From Oligoflexales bacterium (GTDB taxonomy: Bacteria; Bdellovibrionota_B; Oligoflexia; Oligoflexales; JALZUQ01): a stretch of DNA of 64,000 nt. Positions 23,933-63,591 of the stretch are shown here, one piece after another. The notes beneath the pieces are model-generated. The model did no database searches and had not been told where the DNA came from. It was given only the letters and a program-made list of their open reading frames with translations. The stretch is from assembly GCA_023301465.1 (NCBI GenBank), contig JALZUQ010000030.1, positions 16,903-80,902 on the forward strand, in the 5' to 3' direction. Numbering within the stretch: position 1 is the stretch's first letter; each line of letters starts with the position of its first letter. Made by a program: the position numbers and the translations under genes.

Positions 23933-23946
23933 TTTTTCAAACTCCA

Positions 23947-27087: not shown

Positions 27088-27098
27088 AGTAATTTCCT

Positions 27099-28742: not shown

Positions 28743-29440
28743 AAGAAGAACACACTCACACCGGCATCCACAGACCATGACTGCCTTAAGAAATCTTCGT
28801 CGGTGAATTGATTCGTTTCATTCCAAAAACGATCTTTTACATCTACTCTTAAAGAAAGGAATTTATATAAGTATAACCTAATACCAAAACCGAAATTTGG
28901 AGCAATTTTGTTACCTTGATCAGTATTGACTGAACCAATGCCTATAGATCCATAAATATCAGTATAAATGATTGCTAAGTCAAAAAAGTTCAATTTGCCA
29001 TAAAATGGCGTCATCACGGCTGAACCTTCAATAATTGTACTTACTCGATTGCGGTGAACATCTACTCTTTCAGTTTTAACTCGTGATGTTTCAACATCCA
29101 AAACATCAAACTCTTGCATCTGAATTGCATCAAAGTCCCTAGAATCAGAGTTTGTCACACTGGCATATTGTATATCTAAACCAAACCACTCACTCACAAA
29201 AATGGAAGCTCTCACACCAAACAAAAAAGTATCTAAGAAGGCTTCGTTTGTAATAGTTCCAGCAAACAACCCTAGCTCTGGACGAAAACGTTTTTTAAAA
29301 AAACGATTATGCAAAACAGAAATACTTCGTTCTTTGGTTTTGGTTCTAATCTCATCGGGCTTGATATCTAATGCAATAAGTCCGGATGGTGATAATAGTC
29401 CAGAGACTACGAGAATCATGATCGCTAAATTACGCCACAT
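28739..29440 (-). CDS. outer-membrane beta-barrel protein (GltA/NfsA-like)
   Basis: Signal peptide, alternating beta-strand pattern, VLHNRFFKKRFRPEL motif, C-terminal aromatic ending VSVFFL. Confidence 0.55.
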   Translation of the reverse strand: MWRNLAIMILVVSGLLSPSGLIALDIKPDEIRTKTKERSISVLHNRFFKKRFRPELGLFAGTITNEAFLDTFLFGVRASIFVSEWFGLDIQYASVTNSDSRDFDAIQMQEFDVLDVETSRVKTERVDVHRNRVSTIIEGSAVMTPFYGKLNFFDLAIIYTDIYGSIGIGSVNTDQGNKIAPNFGFGIRLYLYKFLSLRVDVKDRFWNETNQFTDEDFLRQSWSVDAGVSVFFL

Positions 29441-29673
29441 ACATTTACCTCTAAAAATAGAAAACAGAGCTTCTGTATTTGGATTCGGAGTGGGGTTTGA
29501 AAAGTTTAATTGAGTTTTGCAACAACCCACAAAAAAGACTACTTCACTAACTAATACACAGACTTATGAAGGGTATTTTTTGCCTAAAATTCAATGGTTT
29601 TTGGATGAAAAATCAAGATAAAGAATACTATTTTGTAATCATCAAGAGCCATAGTGCTCGTGCGTAAATTTAT

Positions 29674-29689
29674 TGGCACTATTATTGCT
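29674..29689 (+). promoter_or_regulatory. sigma54-type -24/-12 motif with no obvious downstream gene
   Basis: TGGCAC-TATTA-TTGCT has exact consensus spacing. It points antisense into the 3' end of 29725..31203. Confidence 0.3.
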
Positions 29690-29724
29690 AACAATTAGAA
29701 TTTTTTTTCTATTTTATTTGGTTA

Positions 29725-31203
29725 TTAAAGAAACCAAAAACATCCAAAAAGAATCAATGTAGGAACCATCGCTCCCGCTAAAAGATAAATCGGACTTACC
29801 ATCTTGTTAGGGAAGTACTTCGACAAAATCGACTGCCCAGCAGGGTTTGGAGCGTTTGCAATCACTGTCAAACCACCACCTGTTACCGCACCGGCAACAA
29901 CCGCATACTTCGCTGTATCCGATAAGCCGGGAACCAAAGTACTCAGGTACGTAATAGCGGCATTGTCATTAAAAGAAGTTAAAACTGTCGAAACTGTGAA
30001 TAAAGCTAGACTCCCTAATCCTCCGAGCACTGGTTCAATCCACCACCCTTGAAGACCACCATGGGTTACTAAGCCAGCCAAAAAGAAACCAACTAGTATT
30101 GGGCTTTCAAGCTTTAATCTATTTTGATGTTGTTCGGTCGCATGCATAAAGCCTAAAAAGAACAAAAAGCCACCTATAAACAGCACAGGATAATGAGCAT
30201 TAAATACTGTCCACCCCATAAATAAAACATGGACCAAGGTCACCCACCAAGGCACTAAGTCCGTTAAGTCATCAGAGGTGACTTCATCACCGTGTTCTTT
30301 ATGTTCTTTAGATTCTTTGAGCTTCGTATTGATACGTTTAAACTCCGAGATAAACATCATGTAGTAAACACCCGTTGCAATCAAAATACCAACGAGGGCT
30401 TTCCAACCAAAGTGAATTGCCATAAAACCCGATGTCCATTCCCAAGGAGCTGCTACCATAAGAACTGGAGGAGCAGCAAAATTTGTAAATGTTCCACCAA
30501 CGGAAATATTGACAAATAGTAGACCAATCGTCGCATACTTAAACTTTACAGAGGGTTTATGAACATAAAACTGTTTTCCAAGTAATAATGCCGCAATCGT
30601 TATAGCTGCAGGCTCAGTGATAAAACTCCCAAGTAAAGGGGCTACAATCAAAATAGACAACCACCAAGCAGACGGCTTTTGACCACCCAGAGATGCTAGG
30701 ATACGCAAGCTATTTTCCGCTAGATTTAAAATAGGTCTCGTCGAAGCAATCGCCATGATCACCACAACAAATAATGCTTCAGTATAAACAACTTTATGAG
30801 AAAGATACTCGACGGCAGTATGCCAATCATAACGAACACAGATTGCCACAATAAGAGCAATCACCCAGATCCCAAAAATTGCCTCTACTTCTCCAAGAAA
30901 GTGGAATATACGTCCCCAAAAAGATACATCTTGGTTTTCTTTTCCAATGGAGCCATCTTCTATAAGTTTTTTGACGTGTTTTTCTTGAATGTCATGCCCA
31001 ATTTTTCTGAAGAAACCAGCAAAAAATGTATGAACAATGGCACAAACAAATATAATAGCTGTAACTAAGTTAAAAGGTTCAGCTTCGATTCTTCCTGCAA
31101 GAATTTCTAACAAACCACCTGAGTCTTGGTAAGAAGTGAGCGCCCTAGGGATGGCTTCGCCGATGCTTTCACCGGAAACTTGCAACAAAGATGCTATGTT
31201 CAT
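29725..31203 (-). CDS. polytopic ion-transporter-superfamily membrane protein (putative Na+/H+ antiporter-like)
   Basis: About 12 TM segments. General resemblance to the DUF1504/NhaD-ArsB type. Family assignment is tentative. Confidence 0.5.
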   Translation of the reverse strand: MNIASLLQVSGESIGEAIPRALTSYQDSGGLLEILAGRIEAEPFNLVTAIIFVCAIVHTFFAGFFRKIGHDIQEKHVKKLIEDGSIGKENQDVSFWGRIFHFLGEVEAIFGIWVIALIVAICVRYDWHTAVEYLSHKVVYTEALFVVVIMAIASTRPILNLAENSLRILASLGGQKPSAWWLSILIVAPLLGSFITEPAAITIAALLLGKQFYVHKPSVKFKYATIGLLFVNISVGGTFTNFAAPPVLMVAAPWEWTSGFMAIHFGWKALVGILIATGVYYMMFISEFKRINTKLKESKEHKEHGDEVTSDDLTDLVPWWVTLVHVLFMGWTVFNAHYPVLFIGGFLFFLGFMHATEQHQNRLKLESPILVGFFLAGLVTHGGLQGWWIEPVLGGLGSLALFTVSTVLTSFNDNAAITYLSTLVPGLSDTAKYAVVAGAVTGGGLTVIANAPNPAGQSILSKYFPNKMVSPIYLLAGAMVPTLILFGCFWFL

Positions 31204-40278: not shown

Positions 40279-40677
40279 GAGAAAAAGAAGGTGAATCAGA
40301 CTGTCGCTGGTTACGTTTTTTATAAGTCGGCAACGATGATGAAGAAGCTAACGGGAGGAAAGTCCGGACTCCATAGGGAACAGTGCTAGTTAACGGCTAG
40401 GCGGGGTAACCCGACGGCAAGTGCAGCAGAAAGTAAACCGCCTGAGTACCCTCGGGTACTTCGGTAAGGGTGAAAGGGTGTGGTAAGAGCACACCAGAGG
40501 CTTGGCGACAAGTCTGCTAGGTAAACCCCACTGGGAGCAAGACCAAATAGGAATCTGCTTGATGTCTTCTCGGCAAAAAGATTCGGGTAGGTCGCATGAG
40601 TGGCGTGGCGACGCGTCACCTAGATGAATGACAGTTCTCGACAAAATCCGGCTTATAGTATTTGCCTTCTTTTTCTC
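40279..40677 (+). ncRNA. rnpB: RNase P RNA, bacterial type A
   Basis: GGAGGAAAGTCCGG, GGTAAGGGTGAAAGGGTG, AGATGAATGAC and ACAAAATCCGGCTTAT. P1 pairs 40279-40291 with 40665-40677. Confidence 0.9.
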
Positions 40678-50395: not shown

Positions 50396-50445
50396 AAATA
50401 TCCATTCAAAGAGAAGACAGAGTACTTTTCTTTGAATGGATATTT
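50396..50445. terminator. bidirectional terminator hairpin between convergent genes
   Basis: Perfect 17-bp stem AAATATCCATTCAAAGA/TCTTTGAATGGATATTT with A/T runs on both sides. Confidence 0.55.
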
Positions 50446-50472: not shown

Positions 50473-51162
50473 CTAAAAAGTATAACTAGACACAAACCAT
50501 TTAGAACCACCGCCCTCTAAAGCATACTCAACCATTATATTATTATGTTCGAGGCATATCTCTTTATCTGAAAGTGTTCTATGAATTTGAACCGTGTCTT
50601 CCGTTAATTCCACTTTGAAGAAATTCTTTTCAAATTCATCTTTTTTGAACTCTACCACTTGATTTGCATACTTAATGCTTTTTACATAACCACTTTGAAG
50701 ATCATCAACTTTCCAAACATATTTTAGTATGTGTTCTTTTTCATATAAATCACTTGTATAAGTCTCATCAACTTTTTCTCTTAAGGCCTTAATTGCTTTA
50801 ACAAGATGATTTACCTGAAACCCTTTGTAGGCAACAGCCTGCTGGATACATTTCATGTATTTTATAATTTCAGCCCAATATATCATGGCTTGAGAGTACT
50901 TTGTTCTAACTTCCAAGCATCTTGGCCTATACTCACGATAATCAAAATCATCCACAAGACCCGGTAAATCTAATTGCGGCCTAAGGTATGATTGGTCATA
51001 ACGCCCCATTAAAGAAGATATAATTCGATCAGAGTCGCTTAAGTTTTTTATGGCATGTTCAAGAGGTTTTTGTTCTAAATAAGGCTCAAAAAATATATGC
51101 TGTCCAAACACACTACTAGAAAAGACAAAAAACAATAAAAGATTAAGTACCTTCACTTTCAC
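50473..51162 (-). CDS. hypothetical secreted protein (gene 5 of operon)
   Basis: Signal peptide MKVKVLNLLLFFVFSSSVFGQ. 20-nt overlap with the upstream gene. Confidence 0.5.
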   Translation of the reverse strand: MKVKVLNLLLFFVFSSSVFGQHIFFEPYLEQKPLEHAIKNLSDSDRIISSLMGRYDQSYLRPQLDLPGLVDDFDYREYRPRCLEVRTKYSQAMIYWAEIIKYMKCIQQAVAYKGFQVNHLVKAIKALREKVDETYTSDLYEKEHILKYVWKVDDLQSGYVKSIKYANQVVEFKKDEFEKNFFKVELTEDTVQIHRTLSDKEICLEHNNIMVEYALEGGGSKWFVSSYTF

Positions 51163-51688
51163 CCTCCCCTAATTTTGCAACTTTTCTTTGAAGCCTCACT
51201 AGTCTTGCAGCGGAAAGACGGTGGGTTAAGCTTGAAAAAAACAGACTTTCTTGCACACTAAGTTCACCTTTATTATAGCGGTCAACATATTTTTTTATTT
51301 CCAGTAACTTTTCAATTTTTGCAATTAAAGTCGTTAACTTTCTAGAACTTAAATCATTGTACACAAACCTAATATTCTCTAATGTGGGTTGTTTCATATA
51401 ATCTACGCTCTGATTAAAAACTTGAACAAGCCTCACATCAAGATCCGCAGCGGTTAGTTTGTTTTTGCGACTCTTTTTTAATTCTGTTGCAGAATCTACT
51501 TTTTGATACCTTGCGTCTTCCAAAACCTTATTGTTTTTTGATTTTAGATCATTGATTTGGTTGTTTTTATGAGCATACTCACTAACCCCTACTTTAGTCT
51601 TCCCACTATCATCATGATCTTGAACCTTATAAATCACCGACAAGACAACTATCACAGCAAAAATTGATGTTAAAAAATACGTCTTCAT
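51143..51688 (-). CDS. hypothetical membrane-anchored protein (gene 4)
   Basis: N-terminal TM segment. 4-nt overlap with the upstream gene. Confidence 0.5.
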   Translation of the reverse strand: MKTYFLTSIFAVIVVLSVIYKVQDHDDSGKTKVGVSEYAHKNNQINDLKSKNNKVLEDARYQKVDSATELKKSRKNKLTAADLDVRLVQVFNQSVDYMKQPTLENIRFVYNDLSSRKLTTLIAKIEKLLEIKKYVDRYNKGELSVQESLFFSSLTHRLSAARLVRLQRKVAKLGEGESEGT

Positions 51689-51993
51689 GATTTTCCCTCC
51701 ATATACTTTATAATCTCAGTTGATTCAGACTTTGAAGGAGCACACTTTTGGCTCCGCTCAGATAATATTTTCATATATTCATAGTAGTTACTATTGCCTT
51801 GAGCTTGCTTCAATTCATTTAACTCCCCCTTGAAGCAAATAAACTCAAAAGCTGCCTTTTTGGAATCACTAGTTGGAGTTTCTAAAACAACATTAGGTGT
51901 TTTTTGACTCTCAAACCTATTCTCATCACTTCCACAACTAGGCAAAAAAATCGTACTTATGAATAGTAAAACTTTAAAGTCTAAGTTGCACAT
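51685..51993 (-). CDS. hypothetical lipoprotein (gene 3)
   Basis: Lipobox IFLPSCG. 20-nt overlap with the upstream gene. Confidence 0.45.
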   Translation of the reverse strand: MCNLDFKVLLFISTIFLPSCGSDENRFESQKTPNVVLETPTSDSKKAAFEFICFKGELNELKQAQGNSNYYEYMKILSERSQKCAPSKSESTEIIKYMEGKS

Positions 51994-52909
51994 TGATCTC
52001 TCCTTCTAATGATCCCGGCTCACGTGGAAGAGCTTTGATCATTGCTTTAAGACTTGAGTAGGTTTTCAAACTTAAATCATCACGAGTAAATTTAAACAAT
52101 GTTTTTAAAGCAGTTTTATCGTCTAACTGTGGTTTTGAGGCTATATACTTGCCTACTAGCAACCCAAACACAGTCGCTTTTTCAATAGACCCATACTCCT
52201 TAATATGATCATTCACGATGTCCATTTTTTTGTAGAGATCATAATATGTTTCAGCTTTTTCGATTGGCATATTTAATTGATATTGATAATCAACTTTTTT
52301 GACAACTGAAAGACTGATTTTATCTTTTTCTAACTCACAATATTGAAGTTTATTTAATAAGACCTTATCATTTTCACTTTTTACTTCTAGAACATCTTGT
52401 TGAAGCTTTAAACCATCTAAAGCAGTGCTCCACTTACTTGATCTGTTTACTAGCCTATATGAAGATTGCTGATCAGAGCTAATTTCAGCCGACGCCAAAG
52501 AAATCGTTTCTTTTTCTACATTTTTTTGAAATGCTATCGTATCAATCCTCGGCAGCCTTGAGATTTGGACATCTCCACTACTCAATTCAATATATTGAGG
52601 ATTTGAAAATCCAAAAGTTGAAATTTCTTGATCCCAAATTAAATCATATAATTTTGTTTTTAATGAATAACAACTATTCACATTTTTGTCTGAACGTTTA
52701 CATATTCTTACACGTGCTTCTAAATCCTCTAATCCTCTATAAAGCAATTTACAGTTTGGAGATTTATTGATTGTTTCCAATAGAATGCCACCTGACTTAG
52801 GTAACGCTATGTATTGATCACCGGATTTCTGGAGTAAATATGATGATTTATTTTGTGCATTTAATGCAAAACTAAACATACACAGGTAAATAATAACTAA
52901 ATTCTTCAT
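51974..52909 (-). CDS. hypothetical secreted protein (gene 2)
   Basis: Signal peptide MKNLVIIYLCMFSFALNAQ. Confidence 0.5.
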   Translation of the reverse strand: MKNLVIIYLCMFSFALNAQNKSSYLLQKSGDQYIALPKSGGILLETINKSPNCKLLYRGLEDLEARVRICKRSDKNVNSCYSLKTKLYDLIWDQEISTFGFSNPQYIELSSGDVQISRLPRIDTIAFQKNVEKETISLASAEISSDQQSSYRLVNRSSKWSTALDGLKLQQDVLEVKSENDKVLLNKLQYCELEKDKISLSVVKKVDYQYQLNMPIEKAETYYDLYKKMDIVNDHIKEYGSIEKATVFGLLVGKYIASKPQLDDKTALKTLFKFTRDDLSLKTYSSLKAMIKALPREPGSLEGEINVQLRL

Positions 52910-52920
52910 GACTTTCCTTT

Positions 52921-52951
52921 CAAAATTGGCCTACGCGGTATTGCATAGGCC
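52921..52951 (-). terminator. intercistronic hairpin/attenuator after the first operon gene
   Basis: Minus strand GGCCTATGC-AATAC-GCGTAGGCC (9 bp, one G-U) followed by AATTTTG. Confidence 0.4.
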
Positions 52952-52958
52952 GGATTAA

Positions 52959-54635
52959 CTATCTTTGGAAACTAACGCTATCTGACAACCAGAAATACTC
53001 TGAACCATTCATTTTCTCTGTAGCAGTGAAATTTGTTCGGTTGACATAGGTGTTTTCTACCGTAGAACTACCAAACATTGAATTTAGTGATTTAAACATC
53101 CAACCCGCAGCCTTACAGTAGATATTAATCTTTCCGCAAGTATCATTGATACCGTTTGCTAATACCATAGCCCCGGTTTCTGGTGCTGGGCCTGCATCTG
53201 GCATTTTAGCTGGTGCCACGCGAGTTGCTAATGAGTCCAGTATTCTCGCAACGACTTCTTTTCGCATCTTTACCTCTACAGTTGCACGATCATCCGTATT
53301 ATAGCTACTGCCCGGATCCCAATGAAACTCTATAGTGCTGTTTTTACGTGTATCTTCAATCACTGAAGCCGCAGACTTAGATGAGAAAAAACGTCTTTTC
53401 TTTTTATGTTTTTTAATAAGTGTATAAATCTTACTAGTGTTGTAAGTCATCGAAAAATCAAAATCAAACTTTGATTCATACTGGTAGTTCACTGAAAAAC
53501 CAAATTTATGAAAGTTTAAATCATCTAACTCTGGTTGATCATCAAGACCATCATAAAAATACTTATCTAACTTTCCACAAGTTGAAAGCAAACTCATTCG
53601 AAAGTCGCCACTCACCAATGCGTGAATAGCACTCTTTGTATGTTTTACTTTTTTGTCTCCAAAAGCGTCTAGCTCTACTTCAATGTCACCTTTTGCAACA
53701 CGCGGCATCCCACTTACATTGTAATCAAGCACGGAAGGCATACTACTCAGATAGTTTTCATTTTTTACGAAATCTAAATGAAAATTAAGATCAACGTTAT
53801 ATGTTGAAATTGGTTTAAAGTTAAACTCTGGGTACTTAGCTTGAAGTGAGGCAATAACTTCTTCCCACCTAGTCTCATAGTCAATTGCAGCCCAACCACC
53901 TTCTGTAACAGCGTCTACAGAGAACATCTCCATAAACTCAGCTCTCAAAGCGATCAGTTTACTGATTCTTTGAGCGTAAGGAGCAGAATAACTGTCTACA
54001 ACCCCTTGAGCTTGCTCAAGCCTACGCTCAGCTTTTTCAAATTCTCTAGCGATTACTTTGTTTTCTTTTCTTAGTTCGCGGTAAATGCTCTGATTATCTC
54101 GGAGAGTCTGCAATAAATCCGTATAACGCACTGATAGTTCACTACAACCTTGCTTACATTCATTTAACTCCTCGCCTACTTCTGTAAGTAAGTTGTTTGT
54201 GTCATCTATCTCTCTTTTTGCAGCTAATAGCTTTGCAGTCTCAGGTCTTGCTGATACTTCACCTAATAGTTCCCTAGCAATATTCTCTTTTTGAATAGCA
54301 GCATCAAGTAGGTGCTTATAATCATCTGCTCTCTCAGTAGCTTTCTTGATTTGATTTGTAACAGATGCACTTGCATCCAAAATTGTCTTCGCTTGACTAC
54401 AACGAGTTTTTAAAAATGGATCGTTAACGTCAGCTGAAAAGCTCTTTACTACTACTCTTCCTGTTTTTGGTGGCTTTACCCAAACTTGTTTGTTGGTATT
54501 AAACTCATGATCAGGAACAACCTCTGCTTCTGGTGAGTCCACTTTAAATCCAATTAATCCTTTCGCATATGGCGATGGTGCTGCTGAAATATACGCACTA
54601 CATACCAAACCGAGAGTAACCATGTACTTCTTCAT
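52959..54635 (-). CDS. hypothetical secreted coiled-coil protein, 558 aa (gene 1)
   Basis: Signal peptide, long heptad-like central region, AGAGGGGG SD. Confidence 0.55.
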   Translation of the reverse strand: MKKYMVTLGLVCSAYISAAPSPYAKGLIGFKVDSPEAEVVPDHEFNTNKQVWVKPPKTGRVVVKSFSADVNDPFLKTRCSQAKTILDASASVTNQIKKATERADDYKHLLDAAIQKENIARELLGEVSARPETAKLLAAKREIDDTNNLLTEVGEELNECKQGCSELSVRYTDLLQTLRDNQSIYRELRKENKVIAREFEKAERRLEQAQGVVDSYSAPYAQRISKLIALRAEFMEMFSVDAVTEGGWAAIDYETRWEEVIASLQAKYPEFNFKPISTYNVDLNFHLDFVKNENYLSSMPSVLDYNVSGMPRVAKGDIEVELDAFGDKKVKHTKSAIHALVSGDFRMSLLSTCGKLDKYFYDGLDDQPELDDLNFHKFGFSVNYQYESKFDFDFSMTYNTSKIYTLIKKHKKKRRFFSSKSAASVIEDTRKNSTIEFHWDPGSSYNTDDRATVEVKMRKEVVARILDSLATRVAPAKMPDAGPAPETGAMVLANGINDTCGKINIYCKAAGWMFKSLNSMFGSSTVENTYVNRTNFTATEKMNGSEYFWLSDSVSFQR

Positions 54636-54713
54636 TTTAAAACCCCCTCTTTCTTCGGTATTGAACCGACATAAAAATTAGTTAACGTGATGTTGATCAA
54701 CACAATTCTTATT

Positions 54714-54728
54714 ACAATTGCCGTGCCA
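54714..54728 (-). promoter_or_regulatory. sigma54-like -24/-12 element upstream of 52959..54635
   Basis: Minus strand TGGCACG-GCAA-TTGT has consensus spacing with one mismatch (TTGT for TTGC), about 80 nt upstream of the ATG. Confidence 0.35.
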
Positions 54729-54787
54729 CTGTTTCTTAGAAAACATTTCAAGTATATTTCACGAGTTATCAGCCTGTAGTTTTTAGT

Positions 54788-54826
54788 TGAGTCTCACCGA
54801 GTCTCACCGAGTCTCACCGAGTCTCA
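54788..54826. repeat. tandem 10-bp repeat, GAGTCTCACC x3.9
   Basis: Read directly: gagtctcacc gagtctcacc gagtctcacc gagtctcac. Confidence 0.95.
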
Positions 54827-54839
54827 CATAAAAAAATAT

Positions 54840-54859
54840 AGTCTCATATTTTTTGAGAC
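54840..54859. promoter_or_regulatory. inverted repeat AGTCTCA-N6-TGAGACT (candidate operator or UAS)
   Basis: Perfect 7-bp arms. Shares the 13-mer TATAGTCTCATAT with 57207-57219. Confidence 0.5.
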
Positions 54860-54995
54860 TGTTAGAATTTTTTTTCATCAAATCAAATTGATTCAAAAAA
54901 AATTAAAACTGGAATTTTGTACAATTAAAAAAATAAATTTTAGTTGAACCATTGAAAAAAAATTTATAGCTTTGTAAAAACCAAGGAGAAAAAAC

Positions 54996-56147
54996 ATGGC
55001 ACACAAATCTTTTTTAATAAAAATATTGATCTTACTTTTACTTAACATTTCTTGCGGAAAAGAGCTAAAAGACAAAAACCTAGGCAAAAAAAAATTTGAA
55101 AATAAATACTCAACGCATACAGACGACGACAGAAACATAAATAAAAACCAAGAAAAACCAGTCATCAACGACAACAAAAAAAATCAGAACAACTCACCAT
55201 TATATAAAAATAAATTTATTGAAGACGAATCAATTGTAGACAGGGAAGATGAAATACAAAAGAAGAAGCAAAGCATAAAACAAAATTGTTACATATTACA
55301 CGCACCACGACACGAAAGTTTTTCAGATAAACAATTCAAAATTACCAACCCAGAAGAAGGCAGTAGCTTTACGATAGAAGTCAATTCAGTTCATAGCAGC
55401 CTTTTATATATTAATATTGAAACTAAAAACGATGAAAGCCTACACACACTTATTCGTCAAAAAGACCTAAATTTTCTTGCAAACAAGTTTACCTTATTAA
55501 CATCTATAAAAAAACGCACCATAGAATCCAAGCCATTAGTTTTGCACAATCTTGATAAACTTTTAAACTCCTTGGACACCAACACACGTGTTAGTAACTT
55601 CAATAAATTAACTAATCACGAAATCGAAAACATCATACTATTTATCAAATACACAACCAAGAACATAAATGGATTACACAGAATCATAGAAAGCGAAACA
55701 ATATACAAACGCAACGCTAAAAAAACACAAGACAATATAGTCTTGAAGTTAAACACCTACCTTGCACACACAACTTTTGATAAAAATAAATCACATGTGT
55801 TTATTGATTCCACCTACTCAGACGACAATGGATTTCATATAGCAGTGGACAAAGATGGTAATAAAGTATATATAACAGCCTATCTAAAAAATTCTAAATT
55901 TTTTATTTTATCCGCTAATCATCATAAACTTACTTTTTTCTCAGACTTATTTTTAAAACATTCATTGAACAATGACACAAGAGAATCCATTGACTTATTA
56001 ATACAGCATTTAATAAAACTGACTCATTCAACTGACAGGTATTCTTTTTTAGAATATTTCTATGGTTTATCCGATGAAGATATAAAAAGAATGATTCATT
56101 ACATTAAATTTGTAGATCAGCATAAAAATGAGTTCGTTGAAAAATAG
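54996..56147 (+). CDS. modular lipoprotein, 383 aa, two internal repeat modules
   Basis: Lipobox LLNISCG and AAGGAGA SD. Each half ends in an L[TS]xx[DE]I[EK]x[IM]xx[FY]IK[YF]-like motif. Confidence 0.6.
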   Translation: MAHKSFLIKILILLLLNISCGKELKDKNLGKKKFENKYSTHTDDDRNINKNQEKPVINDNKKNQNNSPLYKNKFIEDESIVDREDEIQKKKQSIKQNCYILHAPRHESFSDKQFKITNPEEGSSFTIEVNSVHSSLLYINIETKNDESLHTLIRQKDLNFLANKFTLLTSIKKRTIESKPLVLHNLDKLLNSLDTNTRVSNFNKLTNHEIENIILFIKYTTKNINGLHRIIESETIYKRNAKKTQDNIVLKLNTYLAHTTFDKNKSHVFIDSTYSDDNGFHIAVDKDGNKVYITAYLKNSKFFILSANHHKLTFFSDLFLKHSLNNDTRESIDLLIQHLIKLTHSTDRYSFLEYFYGLSDEDIKRMIHYIKFVDQHKNEFVEK

Positions 56148-56287
56148 TAAAACCTTTAACTAGAATTCGGCTTTGCAGGACACTTTGAGTTCACAAAACC
56201 AATCTTACACGACATGAAAAATTTACGAGACTGCCATTTTACAGTTCCAAAACATTAATTTCTCTAAAAATTAATTCTATAATTCAC

Positions 56288-56302
56288 GAGACTTGTCTCA
56301 CC
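56288..56302. promoter_or_regulatory. GAGAC-TT-GTCTC palindrome (GAGACTTGTCTCACC)
   Basis: Same half-sites as the 54788-54859 and 57200-57217 elements, 57 nt upstream of the ATG at 56359. An extra CGAGACT half-site lies at about 56226. Confidence 0.4.
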
Positions 56303-56358: not shown

Positions 56359-57062
56359 CATGAAGCATAAAAAATTAATTTTCAAAACAGTTACACTACT
56401 TTTTTTAAATGCATCTTGCGGCGACAACCCTAAAGAAAAATTTAAAAATACAAAAAAACTAAAACAAATTATTCATCCAGCACAGAACCAGAAAACACAA
56501 TCAAAGAAAAAAGCGAGAACAGTGAAGAGAACGAAATAAACGGCAATATTCAACAACAAATTGAAACCCCCATAGGCAATTATGAAGGCTACGATTATGA
56601 AGACACAGGTTACGAGGAGAAAAAATAAAAAAAAATAAAAAAAAAAATAGCTTTACATTAAAATCCCCTGTTTTTGGAATATACTCAATAAAAGATTTCA
56701 CCATCACAAACACAGAAAAAAACACTAAATTTATGATACACACCACTCTAAATGAAAACCCATTTTTATTGATACGCATAACAGATGAATCAAACAAAAA
56801 AAGCACATTAGGGATACACCTAAAAAACCTTGCCTTCTTTATAGATGGATTTATTAAGCATTTAACCATTAAAGAGCAGGCTTTAGTTTCTGCTCAGTTA
56901 ATTTTACAAAACATCAATATTTTGCTCAACTCAACCGATTACGATGATCTCGAAAACAACTTCAATAAGTTCAACAATGATGACATAAAAAACATTGAAC
57001 AATACCTTCAATATATAGAAAAAAATGAAAATGATTTATATGCATTTAAACCAGCAGAATAA
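56359..57062 (+). pseudogene. frameshifted paralog of lipoprotein 54996..56147
   Basis: Same SD (AAGGAGAAAAAC-ATG) and lipobox (FLNASCG). The reading frame breaks at least 3 times. The C-terminal module (56601-57062) is paralogous. Confidence 0.55.
56620..56647 (+). repeat. homopolymeric tract A6-T-A9-T-A11 inside the disrupted lipoprotein gene
   Basis: Read directly from the sequence. It coincides with one of the frame changes. Confidence 0.95.
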
Positions 57063-57199: not shown

Positions 57200-57217
57200 A
57201 TGAGACTATAGTCTCAT
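57200..57217. promoter_or_regulatory. perfect 18-bp palindrome ATGAGACTATAGTCTCAT
   Basis: Read directly. About 110 nt upstream of the EamA gene start. Confidence 0.5.
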
Positions 57218-57327
57218 ATAACGCCTAAATATCTCAATAATATAAAGTGTTTGACACGATTCACCATAAAGACATACAACCCAAGAATGCACTGACTTTG
57301 TGCCAATGTAATCACTGAGGTTCCACC

Positions 57328-58266
57328 ATGAAAAAAGACACCAAAAATGACCAAATGGCATTCTTATTTGGAGTGCTTGCAAACACATTATGGGCCACCT
57401 CATTTCTCGCATCAAAATACACTCTTGAAACATGGGGTCCTTTTTCATCATCATTTTTTAGATTTATTCTCGCCTCGATATTAATGATTTGTTTGTATCC
57501 GTTTATAGGTCTAGAACTCAAATTTCCAAATAAAAAAGAATGGGCACCAATTCTCTTGGTGGCGTTGTTTCAGTTTGGTTTACTATATCCGCTACAGCTA
57601 TATGGATTAGAGTATTTGGATACTTCGGTTTCTGCCGCTATCATGCTCATATCACCGTTATTTGTTATCTCATTAGCCGGCATGCTCTTGTCTGAAGTTA
57701 TCACCATACAAAAAGTTTTAGCTATCCTGATAGGGATCATTGGTGGACTCGTTCTTTTTGGAGAACACATTTTCCAAAACAACAGCTACACCAAGGGATT
57801 ATTACTTACATTTTCAGCGGCACTTTGCCTAGCAATCTCCATTGTATTAACCAGAAAATACGGAAAAAAAATCGAGACTTCACATTTAACCTTGTGGTCA
57901 ATGATCATTGGAAGCTTTTTACTGTTCCCATTTTTTCTATCGGAGCCTCAAACCAAAGACGGGTTAGTGTTTAGTTGGAGTAATCATAAACAATCCATCA
58001 CTGCATTATTCTATTTATCAATCGTTTGCTCAGCTTTTACATTCTACATTTGGAACAAAGCACTCAAAATGACAGAAGCAAAAAACCTTGCCAGCACGAT
58101 GCATTTAAAGACACCTGTTGCTATCATCATTGGCGTTATTATTGCAAAAGAAGAACTTTCGACATCTATTATTCTTGGAACGATCATTATTTTTCTTGGG
58201 GTTTGGTTCTCTCAAGCAAAAATTAATAATTCTATCCTTTTAAAAAAGATAAAAGGAAGAAACTAA
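57328..58266 (+). CDS. EamA/DMT family transporter
   Basis: 10-TM pattern with two EamA-like halves. Confidence 0.75.
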   Translation: MKKDTKNDQMAFLFGVLANTLWATSFLASKYTLETWGPFSSSFFRFILASILMICLYPFIGLELKFPNKKEWAPILLVALFQFGLLYPLQLYGLEYLDTSVSAAIMLISPLFVISLAGMLLSEVITIQKVLAILIGIIGGLVLFGEHIFQNNSYTKGLLLTFSAALCLAISIVLTRKYGKKIETSHLTLWSMIIGSFLLFPFFLSEPQTKDGLVFSWSNHKQSITALFYLSIVCSAFTFYIWNKALKMTEAKNLASTMHLKTPVAIIIGVIIAKEELSTSIILGTIIIFLGVWFSQAKINNSILLKKIKGRN

Positions 58267-58352
58267 TATGCAACAACTTATTATGACCAAAAACTTAAAA
58301 TCAAAATGAACCATTTACACGTAGTGAGATACTACATAAGGAAGGACCTAAC

Positions 58353-59060
58353 ATGCTAGAAATTAACCTTGGAAGCCAAAGCAGGACATATAGTCCAGCT
58401 CCATTATATCAGACTGACTTTGCTCCTGACCTCGTGATAGAGGTTACCAGTATCTGTGACCGAGCATGCCATGGGTGTTATGCAAACAATATCCTTGCAA
58501 AAGGTGACAAAGCAACTGTTGCAAAAAAATTTCCGCAACTATTTCTCAAGTTATCAGACTTAACCTCAAATCTTCATGCCTTAGAAACTTCTCCCGCCTC
58601 TCTATCATTTCGCGGGGGAGAGCCAACGAGACACCCTGAACTCCACCGAATACTTGAAATTGCATCGAGCAGTACACCTTCGAAAAAAAACTACTTAGAG
58701 ACCCACGGTCGTTGGCTATTTAATGATGATAACAAAGACCTCTTAGATGCTATTGCCAAAACGGGCACCATTGTCAAAATATCCCATGACTCAATGCACG
58801 AACTTTCGACAGAAGACCTAAAAAAAATAACCGACTTATTAATATCAAAAGACATTGAATTCCTCATTGCCATTACTGAGAACAGCTATAATGAGTTTTT
58901 AAAATGTAGAAATGATATTGCATTTGTTCAAAATGAAAAAATCGTCTTTCAACAAAAGGCACAGTTTGACCACGAGCTTTTAAAACCAAAAATTGGTGTT
59001 ATTTCTTGTGATGGAACTTTAAAGAAAACACTCAACTCAAAGATAGGCTTTAAAAAATAA
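58353..59060 (+). CDS. small radical SAM domain protein
   Basis: CDRACHGC (CxxxCxxC) cluster motif and FRGGEPT SAM-binding motif. Confidence 0.6.
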   Translation: MLEINLGSQSRTYSPAPLYQTDFAPDLVIEVTSICDRACHGCYANNILAKGDKATVAKKFPQLFLKLSDLTSNLHALETSPASLSFRGGEPTRHPELHRILEIASSSTPSKKNYLETHGRWLFNDDNKDLLDAIAKTGTIVKISHDSMHELSTEDLKKITDLLISKDIEFLIAITENSYNEFLKCRNDIAFVQNEKIVFQQKAQFDHELLKPKIGVISCDGTLKKTLNSKIGFKK

Positions 59061-59061
59061 T

Positions 59062-60201
59062 ATGAACAAAATTGCTATCATCATATTCTTTATTCTTAGT
59101 CATCATGCACTTGGCAAAAAAATCCGAGTTGGCATTGCATCGAATTTTTCAAAAATAAGTTCCAGTGCCTCAAATCCTTACGGCAACTACTTTAGAGACG
59201 CTATCTACCTTGCTCTTTCACAAAAAAAGAAAAACTTGAAAAAAAAGAACATTGAAATTGAATTAGTTGAATTTGATTACGGAGACTCTAAACTTGCTGT
59301 ACTTAAATCTGCAAATAATGCATGTGCCTCAGATGTATCGGTTGTGATTGGTTATGGTTTTTCAAGCCATGCATTACTTGCTGCCCCCATTCATGAAAAA
59401 TGCAAACTTAGCATGATCACTCCTACAGCAACTGCAGACAGTCTCAGCAAATTTGAAAAATACGTCCATAGAGGCTCTTTTGATAACGCTTACCAAGGTG
59501 AGACATTGGCAAAGCTTGTAAAAAGCTGGAACAAAAAAAGCAAAGCTATTATTATAAGCATTGCTGACTGTGCTTACTGCCAAGACTTAGCAAAAGCCTT
59601 CGAAACGCAATACTCTAAACTAGGCGGTGAAACTTTAAAACATTACAGGACTTTGGATAACGAAAAAGACATTCAAAAATTAGTTTCAAAACTAGAAAAA
59701 AACTCCTTTGATGTCGTTGTTGTACCAAATCACGAGTTGGTTTCTGCAAGTATATTAGAAGCTGTATCTAGAGAACACCCGAACGCTGTGTTTTTAGGGG
59801 GCGATGGATGGGGAGATATCGGACAACAAATTAAATCTGTTGTTAAAGAACGCCATATAAAGCGGTACTGGGTCACCCATTGGCTTAAAGCTATCAATAC
59901 AAAAAAAATAAATGGTTTTATTAAAGCATATCAAAAAATGTTTATGAAATCACCAAACGAAACATCAGCACTGACATACGACAGTATGAATATCCTCATA
60001 AACGCAATCATGAACTCTAAAAACCACTCCAGAAAATCCATAGAAAACTCATTAAAAAAAATAAAGTTTCACAATGGAGTTACCGGCGACTTCATATTCA
60101 GAAGCAAAAGAGCACCCAAGAAAAGCATAGTTTTGTTAGAAAACCACTTAGGAACTAATAGATTAGTCAAGATCATCAACCCAACAAAAAGCATACCATG
60201 A
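59062..60201 (+). CDS. periplasmic ligand-binding protein (LivK/Peripla_BP_6-like)
   Basis: Signal peptide. Type I periplasmic binding protein (PBP)-like pattern (VIGYGFSSHALLAAP, GGDGWG). Confidence 0.65.
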   Translation: MNKIAIIIFFILSHHALGKKIRVGIASNFSKISSSASNPYGNYFRDAIYLALSQKKKNLKKKNIEIELVEFDYGDSKLAVLKSANNACASDVSVVIGYGFSSHALLAAPIHEKCKLSMITPTATADSLSKFEKYVHRGSFDNAYQGETLAKLVKSWNKKSKAIIISIADCAYCQDLAKAFETQYSKLGGETLKHYRTLDNEKDIQKLVSKLEKNSFDVVVVPNHELVSASILEAVSREHPNAVFLGGDGWGDIGQQIKSVVKERHIKRYWVTHWLKAINTKKINGFIKAYQKMFMKSPNETSALTYDSMNILINAIMNSKNHSRKSIENSLKKIKFHNGVTGDFIFRSKRAPKKSIVLLENHLGTNRLVKIINPTKSIP

Positions 60202-61574
60202 GCAAATCGCTGAGAGAAAAAATCAATAAAATTACTGTTCAATCTACAGTAGCAATTATTTCTCTCACCATTATTATTGTTTGTGCTTACTGGTTTATGA
60301 TTAAAGAAGCCTCATTGAAAGAAGTGAGCAATATCCTGCTACAGAACTCTGAAACACAAAAAACTAATTTGATACCATCCATCATTCTAGAAGAACAAAA
60401 AATTGGCATTAACTTACTTCTCAATAAAATCAAACAAGTAGAAAACCTGTCTTCCATAAAATTGATCAAAAAGGACCAAAGCACCATTCAATCAGAGTGT
60501 TTCTTGAGAGAAAAAGGTTATTATGAATGCCCTAACTCCCCCAGCACACTAAAACTTGCCATACCTATTAACTACGGTAACGCTGAATTTGGTTTTTTGG
60601 TAAAAGAAAAAGAAATTGAATCTATTGTATCTGGAAACCGAGTTATTATCGTTTCATTATTTGCGATTGCATTATTCTTAATTTTCTCCATGACATTATT
60701 AAAATCTTTTAAAAGACTTACTGCCACAGAAATCCCAAACTCCCTTGATCAGCTTGTCTGTTTTGTGGATGGTTGGTTAAAAGGCAATGACATAAACATA
60801 GAAGGCAACATTCAATTCTCTGAGTTTCAAGAGCTCGCAGCCACGATTAAAGAAGTTTTTAAAATATACGAAACAAAGCGAAACCAAGCAATTGTCGGTC
60901 AAATTTCAAGTGGAATACTCCATGATATTAGAACGGATTTACAATCAATATTAGCAGCACATTGCTTAATTAGCGAAGCTACAGCAGAAGGTAAAGACCA
61001 TAAAATAGAGAAACTAAACAAAAACCTTTTTAACGTACTCGAAAGAAAACTTCCGCACCTTGTCAGTGTTGTAGAAACCACCTTAGATGTGAATAGAGAG
61101 ATCTCTCTTGACCCTAAGTTTGAGTGCTTGAACAAAACTATTCATAGCTCTATTTCAAACCTTGAAAACTCTATCTCTAAGCTCGATGCTAAAATCAACA
61201 TTCATACTCCTAAAAACAGCATTAAGGCTTATCACGACCCTGTTCAAATCAAGAGAGTGATGCGAAACCTTATCAGAAACTCCTTACAAGCGATCACAGA
61301 GAACACTGACAAATTAATTCATATCTTCCTAGAAGAAACCAATTACAATATCAAAATTCGATTAGAAGACAATGGCAGTGGCATAACACTAAAAAAACAT
61401 GATTTATTTAAGGCTTTTAAGTCTGGAAAAGGTAAAGAAGGCACCGGGCTTGGCCTATTTAACTCCATGCAAATCATAAACGCACATGGCGGCTCTATCA
61501 AGTTTGTAAAACCTAGCATTTTAACCGGTGCATGCTGTGAAATAATGTTACCAAGAGGGGATTTTCATGAGTAA
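60198..61574 (+). CDS. sensor histidine kinase
   Basis: Two TM segments, H-box SSGILHDIRTDL, and an ATPase domain with DNGSGI and GTGLGL. Confidence 0.75.
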   Translation: MSKSLREKINKITVQSTVAIISLTIIIVCAYWFMIKEASLKEVSNILLQNSETQKTNLIPSIILEEQKIGINLLLNKIKQVENLSSIKLIKKDQSTIQSECFLREKGYYECPNSPSTLKLAIPINYGNAEFGFLVKEKEIESIVSGNRVIIVSLFAIALFLIFSMTLLKSFKRLTATEIPNSLDQLVCFVDGWLKGNDINIEGNIQFSEFQELAATIKEVFKIYETKRNQAIVGQISSGILHDIRTDLQSILAAHCLISEATAEGKDHKIEKLNKNLFNVLERKLPHLVSVVETTLDVNREISLDPKFECLNKTIHSSISNLENSISKLDAKINIHTPKNSIKAYHDPVQIKRVMRNLIRNSLQAITENTDKLIHIFLEETNYNIKIRLEDNGSGITLKKHDLFKAFKSGKGKEGTGLGLFNSMQIINAHGGSIKFVKPSILTGACCEIMLPRGDFHE

Positions 61575-62931
61575 ACTAAAGCCAAAAGTACTTGGAATAG
61601 ATGACGATGTCAGTTGGCTAGAACAGCTAAATCTTATCCTTGAAGATGATTGTATGGTCTGTGGAGCTGACACAATTGAAAAAGGCCTTAACATCATCAA
61701 TGATAATTTTTTTGATATTATTATCTTGGATCTAAATTTTAATGATGAAGAAAAATCTGGCTTAGACATCTTAAAAGTCATCCATGCCATGGATCAGGGT
61801 GTGGATGTCGTTGTTATCAGCGGTGAAACAGATTACCGAAAAATCATTAAGGTTATTGACTCAGGGGTCACTAAATTTATTCCAAAACCAGCAACACCTG
61901 AAAAGATCAGATCTGCGATACAAGAAATCATCACAAAACGTGAAAGTAAACGAAGAGCCTTAGCTCATATTGGAAACGACTCTCAAAACCCATTTATTGG
62001 AAGCTCACCGCTTATTTATAAGCTAAGAGAAGACATTCAAAGTATTATTGACTCAGGAACAAAAGATATCCTCATTCAAGGTGAGTCCGGAACAGGAAAA
62101 GAGCTTATAGCACAATGCATCGCCAACAGCTCAGATCGCTTTGGAAGAATGGTGTCAGTGCATTGCGGAGCTATATCTGACTCATTAGCAGAGTCTGAAC
62201 TCTTTGGTCATGAAAAAGGAGCTTTTACAGGAGCCAATACAAACCGCGTTGGCGTCTTTGAAGCCGCTAAAGGTGGGTTTGTATTTTTGGATGAAATTGG
62301 AGAAATGCCACTTTTGCAACAAGCCAAACTTTTGCGTGTCATACAAGAAAGAAAAATTAGGCCCGTTGGAAGCAGCATCGAAAAACAAATTAATTTTCGA
62401 AGCATATCAGCTACGAATAGAAATATTGAACAAGAAGTACAAAAAGGTAATTTTCGTGAAGACTTATTCTACCGAATCGCTAAAGAAACCATTTCTGTTC
62501 CACCGTTAAGAGAACGAAGAGAAGACATACCTGAATTAGTTTATTATTTTCTACAAAAAGAAGCTCAAGGTAAAAAAATAGATGTTTCTATGGACGCAAT
62601 GAGAATGCTACAAGCATATACATGGAAAGGCAATGTCAGGGAACTCATCTCTGTAGTCTATAAAATCACATCCAGACTCAAAGAAGGCACCATCAAAGAA
62701 AAGCATGTCTGCCAAGCCCTACCACAATTTGCAAATTCATTTTCGAAGTCTTATGTCCGCAAAAAAGTGAGAATCTTTAATACCGAATCAGCATTAGAAA
62801 AAAAACGTTTTGAAGAGGCTATTTTGCAAGCTGGGGGAAACAGGACAAAAGCAGCTGAGATACTAAATATATCTAGAGCAACTTTTTTTAGGAAAGCTAA
62901 ATCCCTTGGGCTTGTTAATTCTAGAGTTTAG
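61567..62931 (+). CDS. sigma54-dependent response regulator (NtrC family enhancer-binding protein)
   Basis: Receiver domain, GESGTGKE Walker A, GAFTGA sigma54-contact loop, C-terminal Fis-type HTH. Confidence 0.85.
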   Translation: MSKLKPKVLGIDDDVSWLEQLNLILEDDCMVCGADTIEKGLNIINDNFFDIIILDLNFNDEEKSGLDILKVIHAMDQGVDVVVISGETDYRKIIKVIDSGVTKFIPKPATPEKIRSAIQEIITKRESKRRALAHIGNDSQNPFIGSSPLIYKLREDIQSIIDSGTKDILIQGESGTGKELIAQCIANSSDRFGRMVSVHCGAISDSLAESELFGHEKGAFTGANTNRVGVFEAAKGGFVFLDEIGEMPLLQQAKLLRVIQERKIRPVGSSIEKQINFRSISATNRNIEQEVQKGNFREDLFYRIAKETISVPPLRERREDIPELVYYFLQKEAQGKKIDVSMDAMRMLQAYTWKGNVRELISVVYKITSRLKEGTIKEKHVCQALPQFANSFSKSYVRKKVRIFNTESALEKKRFEEAILQAGGNRTKAAEILNISRATFFRKAKSLGLVNSRV

Positions 62932-62964
62932 TATGCTTAAATCTTCAATAAAAAAGGAAGAATT

Positions 62965-63591
62965 GTGAATTTTAATTACCAAGCCTCATCACAAATTCAA
63001 GATTTATCCAGAAATCACTATCTACTACGTAAAGCAAGTAAAGAAGATATAAAAATCGTGACAAACCTGATCCGAGAATCTTATCAGCACTGGGTTGCTG
63101 TTGGGTTAAAGGTTAGGCCTGCATTTCAGACGGAAGAAACTACTGAGACTCACCTCTTGAATGGTGGGATGGTTCTTGAAAAAAAAGACCATGAAATCGT
63201 TGGTACATTTAGCTTTGACACTGCTAAAGTCACCCATCAAGATTCTTTCTTGATGGCAGATTATACCAATCCTTCTGAACATGTAGAATACGCCCCAAAA
63301 CTTGAGACCAACCAGCAATCTATAGACGGTAAATACCTTGTCTTTAAAAAGCTAGCTATCTCTCCTAGCCTACAAAAAGCTGGCCTAGGCAGAAAGCTTT
63401 ACGATTTTGCTGAGGAGTATGGGCGTACCAAGGCGTTTAAGGGAATGATGCTTGAAACTATCGTTGAAGCTGATTGGTTGTATCAGTGGTATATCAATAT
63501 GGGTTTTGAGGTGATTGGGGGTGTTACTTATGCTGGGTCTGAGATTGAGACTTTATTGTTACGAAAATTTTTTGATAGAAAGAATAACTAG
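62965..63591 (+). CDS. GNAT family N-acetyltransferase
   Basis: LAISPSLQKAGLGRKLYDFAEEYG motif A. GTG start with AAGGAAG SD. Confidence 0.6.
   Translation: MNFNYQASSQIQDLSRNHYLLRKASKEDIKIVTNLIRESYQHWVAVGLKVRPAFQTEETTETHLLNGGMVLEKKDHEIVGTFSFDTAKVTHQDSFLMADYTNPSEHVEYAPKLETNQQSIDGKYLVFKKLAISPSLQKAGLGRKLYDFAEEYGRTKAFKGMMLETIVEADWLYQWYINMGFEVIGGVTYAGSEIETLLLRKFFDRKNN

Follow-up and report, generated by a model that had tools for sequence, protein, structure and literature searches.

Five adjacent minus-strand genes on a contig of an Oligoflexales bacterium encode exported proteins that match no described family. They raise the question of whether they form one regulated unit and, if so, what controls that unit and what its products may build. 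The genes (genes 1 to 5, encoding proteins A to E) lie in contig JALZUQ010000030.1 of GenBank assembly GCA_023301465.1, within a window of 64,000 nucleotides (nt) that spans contig positions 16,903 to 80,902; window positions are used below. An initial annotation, made from the window alone, had described the genes as an operon of orphan proteins with a sigma54 (σ54)-like promoter and repeat elements at enhancer distance. In what follows, the description of the genes, with their export signals and family, and that of the σ54 sites, the hairpin, and the motif that recur or are conserved elsewhere were read from the sequence and from comparison with other loci that carry the same genes (designated by L numbers). 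Collectively, these data suggest, with a probability that we put at roughly 0.55 for the model as a whole, that the genes form a σ54-dependent operon that encodes an envelope cassette, that a locally encoded NtrC-type activator operates on TGAGACT sites upstream of it, and that a hairpin after gene 1 boosts the production of A.

A σ54-like promoter recurs upstream of the cassette

The element TGGCACGGCAATTGTA upstream of gene 1 (Table 1) has a core, TGGCACGGCAATTGT, with a perfect TGGCACG, GG at -25/-24, correct spacing, and GT where GC is expected at -13/-12. This is the site that the initial annotation had put forward, with its single mismatch in the -12 GC. Scored with a weighted matrix, the element reaches 14.9 bits and ranks second among the 127,970 positions of the window, while the bare σ54 pattern with one mismatch returned four matches in the window against 3.2 expected, which is not above chance. 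It ends 77 nt before the ATG of gene 1.

In L006, L007, L011, and L019, the site that scores highest for σ54 across the contig is located 46-66 nt ahead of the gene 1 homolog. The second-best match of the contig lies 71 nt upstream of the homolog in L021, and a weaker site with correct GG-N10-GC spacing lies 47 nt upstream of it in L001. By our own arithmetic over 17 loci, about 0.07 top-ranked sites would be expected by chance in the 70-nt zone, compared to the four observed. Moreover, genes for activators of the type that combines a receiver (REC) domain with a σ54-interaction domain were found near the cassette in three loci. In L007, two genes separate the position of this gene from the cassette at most, that is, it lies two genes away; in L001 and the P0012 locus, it directly adjoins the cassette in divergent orientation. 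The proposal of a σ54 promoter gains support from these recurrent sites in six other loci and from the three cassette-adjacent activator genes, and it is this comparative evidence that appears decisive for the element being real. Since σ54 regulons are generally tied to, and center on, the cell exterior (PMC3162934), an envelope operon would fit the σ54 theme.

The spacing of the -24/-12 element predicts a transcription start that leaves a leader of 67 nt, in keeping with the 5' untranslated region of about 70 nt predicted earlier. The predicted leader ends with a strong Shine-Dalgarno sequence, and its RNA structure is not unusual (z = +0.6). A perfect 12-bp palindrome, TGTTGATCAACA (54691-54702, minus strand), which contains GATC, starts exactly at the predicted transcription start and is followed 5 nt further on by GTTAAC; TGTTGATCAACA may be an operator or a coincidence. 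In L011 (6330-6385), the σ54 element is bracketed by an inverted repeat, TCCGGAAT...ATTCCGGA, and a regulator might bind over the promoter there.

The best σ54 match in the window, TGGCACTATTATTGCT (29674-29689, plus strand, 16.7 bits), is located in the intergenic region 29531-29724. It points into the 3' end of a convergent Na+/H+ antiporter gene (29725-31203, minus strand), and no plus-strand gene follows it. This site may drive a small RNA or an antisense transcript, or it may be non-functional.

The five genes form a compact set for exported proteins

The five minus-strand open reading frames (ORFs), from 54635 to 50473, are present where the initial annotation had placed them, and genes 2 to 5 overlap by 20, 4, and 20 nt as it had reported. 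The unit is closed by a terminator with a 20-bp stem at 50397-50444. Read from the σ54-dependent promoter, the five genes would form a single minus-strand transcription unit that extends from 54702 to about 50440.

Export signals had been claimed for all five products, and a hydrophobic N-terminal segment is indeed present in every protein. The starts of the products of genes 1, 2, and 5 resemble signal peptides, that of gene 3 carries a lipobox (LPSC, Cys20), and that of gene 4 has a single N-terminal transmembrane-like helix (membrane anchor). No ATPase or cytoplasmic component is encoded in the five-gene cassette. As the initial annotation had also observed, domains are not recognizable in proteins A to E: searches of Pfam, NCBIfam, and PADLOC yielded no significant match to described families, only sub-threshold coiled-coil noise, and sequence searches of the PDB with profiles of families A and B likewise returned coiled-coil noise only.

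The cassette recurs, with a widespread protein A and variable partners

More than 10 contigs unrelated to one another share the five-gene layout. Wherever the available DNA of a locus is long enough, the order is A, a signal-peptide protein of ~300 amino acids (aa), a ~100-aa protein, a ~130-180-aa membrane-anchored protein, and a 200-420-aa exported protein; the ~100-aa protein is a lipoprotein wherever its sequence was readable. This suggests that A to E represent a conserved extracytoplasmic set in Bdellovibrionota- and Myxococcota-type bacteria. In the P0012 locus, the five-gene cassette is directly followed by genes for an EamA transporter and an M23 peptidase. An EamA gene also heads the activator module of the window, 2.7 kb from the cassette, and this recurrence may mean something.

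The designation 'orphan' was wrong for gene 1, the product of which belongs to a large uncharacterized family. When 1.84 billion cluster representatives were scanned in full with HMMER, 288 relatives were identified at E ≤ 0.001 (157 at E ≤ 1e-10). Nearly all of the relatives are about 550 aa in length. The top match is 32% identical, and protein A shares about 30% identity with P0001 and P0002 over 99% of its length. Named genomes with family members are metagenome-assembled genomes of Oligoflexales, Pseudobdellovibrionaceae, Bdellovibrionia, and Polyangiaceae; a partial match was detected in Zooshikella. Alignments of the family reveal conserved motifs (WVLPP, CxxxC, LEGG, YNLYKxYE, GGFFSSKS, VLAxGLxxTCGxNxYC, and AIFGSS) and invariant Cys, Pro, and Gly columns. 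The invariant columns are kept in the window protein, which departs from some of the motifs (RRFFSSKS vs. GGFFSSKS).

For collection scans, alignments A1 and A2 were too divergent and the narrower alignment A3 was used, which recovered five genome loci and three metagenome loci. A word-indexed homolog search with protein A, profile included, returned one relative only. The window's own protein A sits in a collection of 15 billion proteins, where its 90% cluster representative is P0275, an unrelated-looking, low-complexity fragment of 36 aa and a clustering artifact. The word-indexed search never returned the window protein because its cluster is filed under P0275. A 559-aa ORF elsewhere in the window (27099-28778) was considered as a paralog of A and rejected, as it is unrelated to gene 1.

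Structure prediction and fold searching had been suggested as a check, and this was carried out for protein A. The protein starts with a signal peptide. Its AlphaFold2 model, a confident one (59 sequences; predicted local distance difference test score [pLDDT] of 83 and predicted template modeling score of 0.64), comprises a small beta element at the N-terminus and a predicted long helical hairpin or bundle at residues 73-242, the tip of which carries the conserved CxxxC. The C-terminal domain is rich in beta structure; its strands are very long, and two conserved cysteines close a helical hairpin within it. Foldseek searches yielded no credible fold match in either the PDB or BFVD. The full model matched only coiled-coil proteins in the PDB (best E = 1.2e-3, template modeling score ≤ 0.18), a model of the C-terminal domain (pLDDT 70) matched nothing in the PDB (best E = 0.39), and nothing past coiled coil was found in BFVD.

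A syntenic gene for a protein of ~300 aa lies 3' of gene A in every locus. Gene 2 encodes a signal peptide and conserved cysteines; across 12 loci (alignment A5), its products align only through conserved Cys and the motif NRxxAC(D/E)L, and there is a weak tblastn match to L014. A possible origin of B as a paralog of the C-terminal domain of A was rejected (hhalign probability of 0.1%). The position of gene 3 is occupied by a small gene of about 90-116 aa in L001, L005, L015, L020, L021, and the P0012 locus, with a lipobox in the L001 counterpart, and that of gene 5 by a gene for an exported protein of about 200-420 aa. No sequence similarity to these counterparts was detectable for gene 3 or gene 5, both of which are recognizable by position only. 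The product of gene 4 has a helical C-terminal part after its N-terminal anchor and shares the motif Y(V/I)(D/E)RxNxG(E/Q) with its L001 and L011 counterparts. To judge from these comparisons, the accessory proteins evolve fast.

A hairpin follows gene 1 in most loci

The initial annotation had pointed to a hairpin after gene 1, and a GC-rich hairpin is present at 52951-52928 (-17.3 kcal/mol, z = -2.9 to -3.8). A hairpin also occurs directly after the stop codon of the gene 1 homolog in 9 of 12 loci, with z of -2.2 to -5.4 and unrelated sequences, such that its position rather than its sequence is conserved. The T-run after the hairpin is longer in L001 and L015, compared to UUUU only in the window, and a simple terminator scan did not report the gene 1 hairpin. 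We consider it a candidate partial terminator or mRNA stabilizer. Because a conserved hairpin after gene 1 and overlapping genes downstream fit a first product made in excess, these features suggest that A may be an abundant subunit and B to E accessory to it.

TGAGACT sites may connect the operon with a candidate activator

A tandem array of GAGTCTCACC upstream of the operon (54789-54827) comprises 3.9 perfect copies (Tandem Repeats Finder score of 78), at -87 to -125 from the predicted start, and corresponds to the four-copy array described earlier. All four copies match one another at every base, also in the linkers (100% identity), and lie one helical turn apart; the exact 9-mer of the array occurs nowhere else in the window. 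The neighboring AGTCTCA/TGAGACT palindrome (54840-54860) likewise stands at the distance originally given, with a spacer of 7 nt and not the 6 nt first reported. Together, the array and palindrome provide six TGAGACT half-sites at -87 to -158, within the enhancer distance range as had been claimed, and the spacer that separates the repeats from the σ54 element is 60 bp long with 70% A+T.

An NtrC-type activator with an intact GAFTGA loop had been noted 7 kb away (61567-62931). Its domains match that description (Response_reg, 5.8e-17; Sigma54_activat, 1.6e-59; HTH_8, 4.4e-08; Pfam), and GAFTGA is visible in the alignment. The closest PDB relatives of the activator are NtrC4 and NtrC1 of Aquifex (229 bits), and its DNA-binding domain is the only one detected in the region from 47 to 64 kb. 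The activator family is widespread in Bdellovibrionota (more than 100 clusters with about 50% identity and an almost invariant helix-turn-helix [HTH] segment). Orthologs of the window activator include P0155, which is 70% identical with nearly identical HTH segments, and others that are 64% and 60% identical. The contig that encodes P0155 (L022/L023) carries the six-gene module of the window (Table 1) in the same order.

The same motif is present at this module. A perfect 18-bp palindrome, ATGAGACT-AT-AGTCTCAT, precedes a TTGACA hexamer by 33 nt and the EamA gene by about 110 nt, and a 13-mer, TATAGTCTCATAT, is identical in the operon palindrome and at 57207-57219. Further copies occur upstream of the fragment of a lipoprotein paralog that starts at 56360. 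Of the 32 occurrences of GAGACT in the window (128 kb, both strands), 11 fall within three intergenic regions between 54.8 and 57.2 kb. At the orthologous place upstream of EamA, L022 has two copies of the palindrome (ATGAGACT-CA-AGTCTCAT and ATGAGACT-AC-AGTCTCAT), an extra TGAGACT, TTGACA at the same distance, and one copy of CGAGTCTCAC. The latter is the extended unit of the four-copy array in the window and is found as a single copy near the activator-module promoter in L022. In a pairwise alignment of the window and L022 intergenic regions upstream of EamA, the palindrome is the longest conserved block.

The repeats can be linked to the activator because a palindrome of the motif is present at the activator module and is kept in a relative with a 70% identical activator. 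The claim that the repeats are sites of this protein gains support from the module palindrome, its conservation in L022, and the near-identical HTH, and the simplest reading is that TGAGACT would be the recognition element of activator 61567-62931. Candidate activator sites are also present in other lineages: L001 has two GTCGGAATCCGAC palindromes at enhancer distance, and inverted repeats lie upstream of the σ54 promoters in L007 and L019. In L019 (~4730-4790), TGAGAAT-AAGA-ATTCTCA-AT-TGAGAAT is found about 90-120 nt upstream of the top-ranked σ54 site. Its half-site, TGAGAAT, is one base off TGAGACT, and activators of the same family may regulate the cassette in a second lineage.

A simple scan flagged the palindromes as terminators, which was rejected since no gene ends there in either direction. 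Within the module, the 3' end of the EamA gene contains a σ54-like site, TGGCGTTATTATTGCA (58131-58146, plus strand, 12.2 bits, rank 9), at a distance of 207 nt from the downstream radical-SAM-like gene. This site could act as an internal promoter through which the kinase and activator genes are positively autoregulated, or it could be due to chance. Upstream of the activator module in L022 (1-5515) are genes for an MmeI-type restriction-modification enzyme, a DEAD helicase, and a T5orf172 protein, and this region looks like a defense island where the window has the cassette and lipoprotein genes.

Proposed mechanism and alternatives

In the mechanism that we favor, the binding protein and the kinase of the module would sense a signal in the periplasm, and the kinase would phosphorylate the activator. 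Bound to the half-sites between -87 and -158 (TGAGACT as four direct repeats and an everted pair), the activator would oligomerize on the array, contact σ54-holoenzyme at 54713-54728 across the 60-bp spacer, and remodel it. The same activator would bind the TGAGACT-N2-AGTCTCA palindrome at the σ70-type promoter of its own module. We infer that the promoter would be used to produce one transcript that spans genes 1 to 5, with the hairpin raising A over B to E either by partial termination or by protection of the upstream mRNA. Protein A may be a structural or effector subunit and B to E its anchoring or assembly partners in an envelope assembly that operates without an ATPase. Alternatively, the products may comprise a toxin-like effector that is secreted, together with proteins for its handling or for immunity. 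In more general terms, we tentatively propose, as a possibility with the odds still against it, that the five genes encode a previously undescribed, ATPase-free system that is typical of Bdellovibrionota and Myxococcota, either an apparatus of the envelope or a secreted effector and its handling factors. Such a system would center on a coiled-coil/beta protein without a solved fold relative and would be controlled by σ54 in several lineages; here, a widespread NtrC-like sensor module would have captured it when one half-site was amplified into a direct-repeat enhancer.

Several observations weigh against σ54-dependent control by the local activator. The -12 dinucleotide is GT in the window compared to GC at all six comparable sites elsewhere, and about half of the family loci (L005, L009, L010, L012-L015, L018, and L020) have no upstream σ54 site; σ54 control is therefore recurrent in the family rather than universal or fixed. 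The annotated ORFs of the window do not include rpoN; the presence of the activator gene implies that rpoN is located elsewhere in the genome. No consensus for integration host factor was identified in the spacer between the σ54 element and the repeats. The operon half-sites are direct or everted, unlike the N2 palindrome of the activator module, and they lie equally near the divergent lipoprotein gene, 136-207 nt from its ATG. The window activator scores 171-180 bits against the cassette-linked activators, below its 229 bits against Aquifex NtrC4/NtrC1, and no cassette is present within 10 kb of the activator module in the closest relative (L022). In addition, the tract after the window hairpin contains only four U.

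The best surviving alternative, which we regard as unlikely, retains the σ54-dependent operon and assigns its activation to a protein encoded outside the window, an ortholog of the L001/L007/P0012-type activators, with TGAGACT serving the local module and the lipoprotein genes. The cassette-linked activators form a subfamily of their own (42% full-length identity and 376 bits between the L001 and L007 proteins), and orthology of the window activator to them was rejected on the bit scores (171-180 vs. 229 and 376). Motif copies also stand upstream of three plus-strand genes that have no σ54 sites (54996, 56360, and 57328), and no cassette is near the L022 module. However, no other candidate site is visible at -80 to -200, and the enhancer zone is precisely where the six half-sites are located. 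In L006, L011, L019, and L021, a σ54 site is present with no activator gene in the contig DNA examined, and linkage of an activator gene is therefore not required; this too speaks against the need for an activator of the linked type.

Decidedly less probable is that the repeats and palindrome are operators of the σ70 type for the divergent 383-aa lipoprotein gene and its paralog and are irrelevant to the operon. The motif does lie 61-72 nt upstream of the 56360 fragment, where it overlaps a σ70-like match, the palindrome is 136 nt from the 54996 ATG, and the motif at the activator module is located just upstream of a conserved TTGACA. Yet no σ70-like match is present on the plus strand between 54861 and 54995, and the geometry of the sites relative to the σ54 element is that of a classic enhancer distance; furthermore, both roles would be compatible in a divergent region.

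The array could alternatively be a slipped-strand contingency repeat, with a copy number that differs among cells or strains and thereby tunes or switches surface-protein expression through the number of sites or the distance between palindrome and promoter, which seems to us a long shot. Since the four copies are identical, linker included, recent amplification is favored over four independently maintained sites, and this is a weak point of activation through the array. A unit of one helical turn would also keep phase upon gain or loss of copies, and the neighboring lipoprotein paralog contains a 28-nt A-rich tract. Set against this, four copies are short for frequent slippage, and the idea is based on one sequence of the locus, the other copy in the protein collection being identical over 85 residues of gene 3.

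Finally, it is scarcely credible that the σ54-like match arose by chance and that transcription of the operon starts at an unrecognized σ70-type promoter. The GT at -12, the chance-level count of the simple pattern, and the lack of a site in about half of the family loci would fit such a view, but the match ranks second among 127,970 positions and is correctly placed and oriented. Six other loci have σ54 sites at the corresponding position, three loci have an adjacent activator gene, and the minus strand at 54636-54995 contains no σ70-like match.

Features of the window

The coordinates of the features discussed here are collected in Table 1. The 383-aa lipoprotein encoded divergently from the operon has an internal duplication, with residues of about 153-234 and about 312-380 both aligning to a 109-aa fragment encoded downstream. 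The plus-strand region 56360-57062 comprises ORFs of 59 and 109 aa that look like a degraded or frameshifted paralog of this lipoprotein, as they match its N-terminal signal and an internal or C-terminal repeat. The A-rich tract between these two ORFs (56620-56647) could be slippage-prone. Apart from these loci, the minus-strand region 22868-29530 contains a cluster that encodes 263-aa and 559-aa proteins without a Pfam match together with 1046-aa and 359-aa tetratricopeptide repeat proteins. A scan of the window against Rfam identified only the RNase P RNA (bacterial class A, 40288-40672, plus strand, 298 bits).

Table 1. Coordinates of the operon, its upstream region, and the neighboring activator module in the 64,000-nt window.
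Feature	Position	Strand	Remarks
Terminator	50397-50444		20-bp stem; between gene 5 end and convergent gene 49971-50339
Gene 5 (E)	50473-51162	minus	229 aa; GTG start
Gene 4 (D)	51143-51688	minus	181 aa
Gene 3 (C)	51685-51993	minus	102 aa
Gene 2 (B)	51974-52909	minus	311 aa
Hairpin	52928-52951	minus	GC-rich, 9 bp; directly 3' of gene 1 stop, then AAUUUUG
Gene 1 (A)	52959-54635	minus	558 aa; signature protein of the cassette
Predicted leader	54636-54702	minus	67 nt; start 54702 predicted from -24/-12 spacing
σ54-type -24/-12 element TGGCACGGCAATTGTA	54713-54728	minus	core TGGCACGGCAATTGT at 54714-54728; GG 54727-54726; GT 54715-54714
Four perfect 10-bp direct repeats	54789-54827		-87 to -125; each with TGAGACT on the operon strand
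Everted palindrome AGTCTCA-N7-TGAGACT	54840-54860		-138 to -158
Divergent lipoprotein gene	54996-56147	plus	383 aa; shares 360-bp intergenic region; could equally be target of the repeats
Further motif copies	56220-56299		ACGAGACT at 56225-56232; palindrome GAGACTTGTCTC at 56288-56299
Perfect 18-bp palindrome ATGAGACT-AT-AGTCTCAT	57201-57218		candidate operator of the activator module
Six-gene module	57328-63591	plus	tightly packed; Pfam matches
EamA transporter	57328-58266	plus	
Radical-SAM-like protein	58353-59060	plus	
Periplasmic binding protein	59062-60201	plus	Peripla_BP_6
Histidine kinase	60198-61574	plus	
σ54 activator	61567-62931	plus	REC-AAA+-HTH_8
GNAT	62965-63591	plus	

Comparison with known systems

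The proposed regulation is that of an NtrC-type σ54 system, and thus of a known kind, with an unusual enhancer layout and GT at -12. In the NtrC/NtrB system, the glnAp2 promoter has upstream NtrC sites, and NtrC also binds its own glnL/glnAp1 region. The window activator resembles NtrC in its combination of REC, AAA+ (GAFTGA), and Fis-type HTH domains and in its pairing with a kinase, and the locus resembles that system in its -24/-12 promoter, in multiple candidate sites ~90-160 bp upstream, and in the presence of the motif at the σ70-type promoter of the regulator itself. It differs in that the sites are four direct half-sites and an everted pair rather than dyads, in the -12 GT, and in a sensor side that includes Peripla_BP_6, a radical-SAM-like protein, and an EamA transporter; moreover, the predicted targets are envelope proteins rather than nitrogen-assimilation enzymes. 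The window activator shares its domain order with the activators linked to the cassette in L001, L007, and the P0012 locus, which flank the same σ54-site cassette, whereas the window has no such gene beside its cassette and its activator is closer to NtrC1/NtrC4 of Aquifex.

With respect to the products, the closest analogy by layout would be that of a major subunit with assembly or anchoring factors, as in curli or pili, an analogy without supporting homology. In P-pilus operons, papA, the gene for the major subunit, is followed by a stem-loop. Gene 1 is similarly followed by a stable hairpin, a short gap, and overlapping accessory genes, and by this analogy an excess of the first product would be expected; however, the cassette exhibits no homology to pilins, chaperones, or ushers. 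Curli are assembled extracellularly by an ATP-independent process that involves CsgA/B together with CsgE, CsgF, and the lipoprotein CsgG. The cassette may be likened to this system in that it is compact, ATPase-free, and composed entirely of exported proteins, with a small lipoprotein, accessory proteins, and a putative major subunit, but there is no sequence or fold similarity, and A is a 558-aa coiled-coil/beta protein and not an amyloid repeat.

Implications

The regulatory logic outlined here (a σ54 promoter, distant sites, and a two-component activator) is textbook and would not change the view of transcription. The proposed enhancer itself is unusual in having four identical half-sites one helical turn apart, and it could show how activator oligomers nucleate. 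Attribution of the TGAGACT motif to activator 61567-62931 would tie it to a defined family of regulators that is widespread in Bdellovibrionota. The family of protein A occurs in predatory and gliding bacteria, the envelope biology of which is poorly known. In these organisms, an unannotated, fold-orphan five-gene envelope cassette that is tied to a sensory input would offer a way to approach by experiment, with regulator mutants and conditions that induce expression, what the cassette may contribute to the cell envelope.

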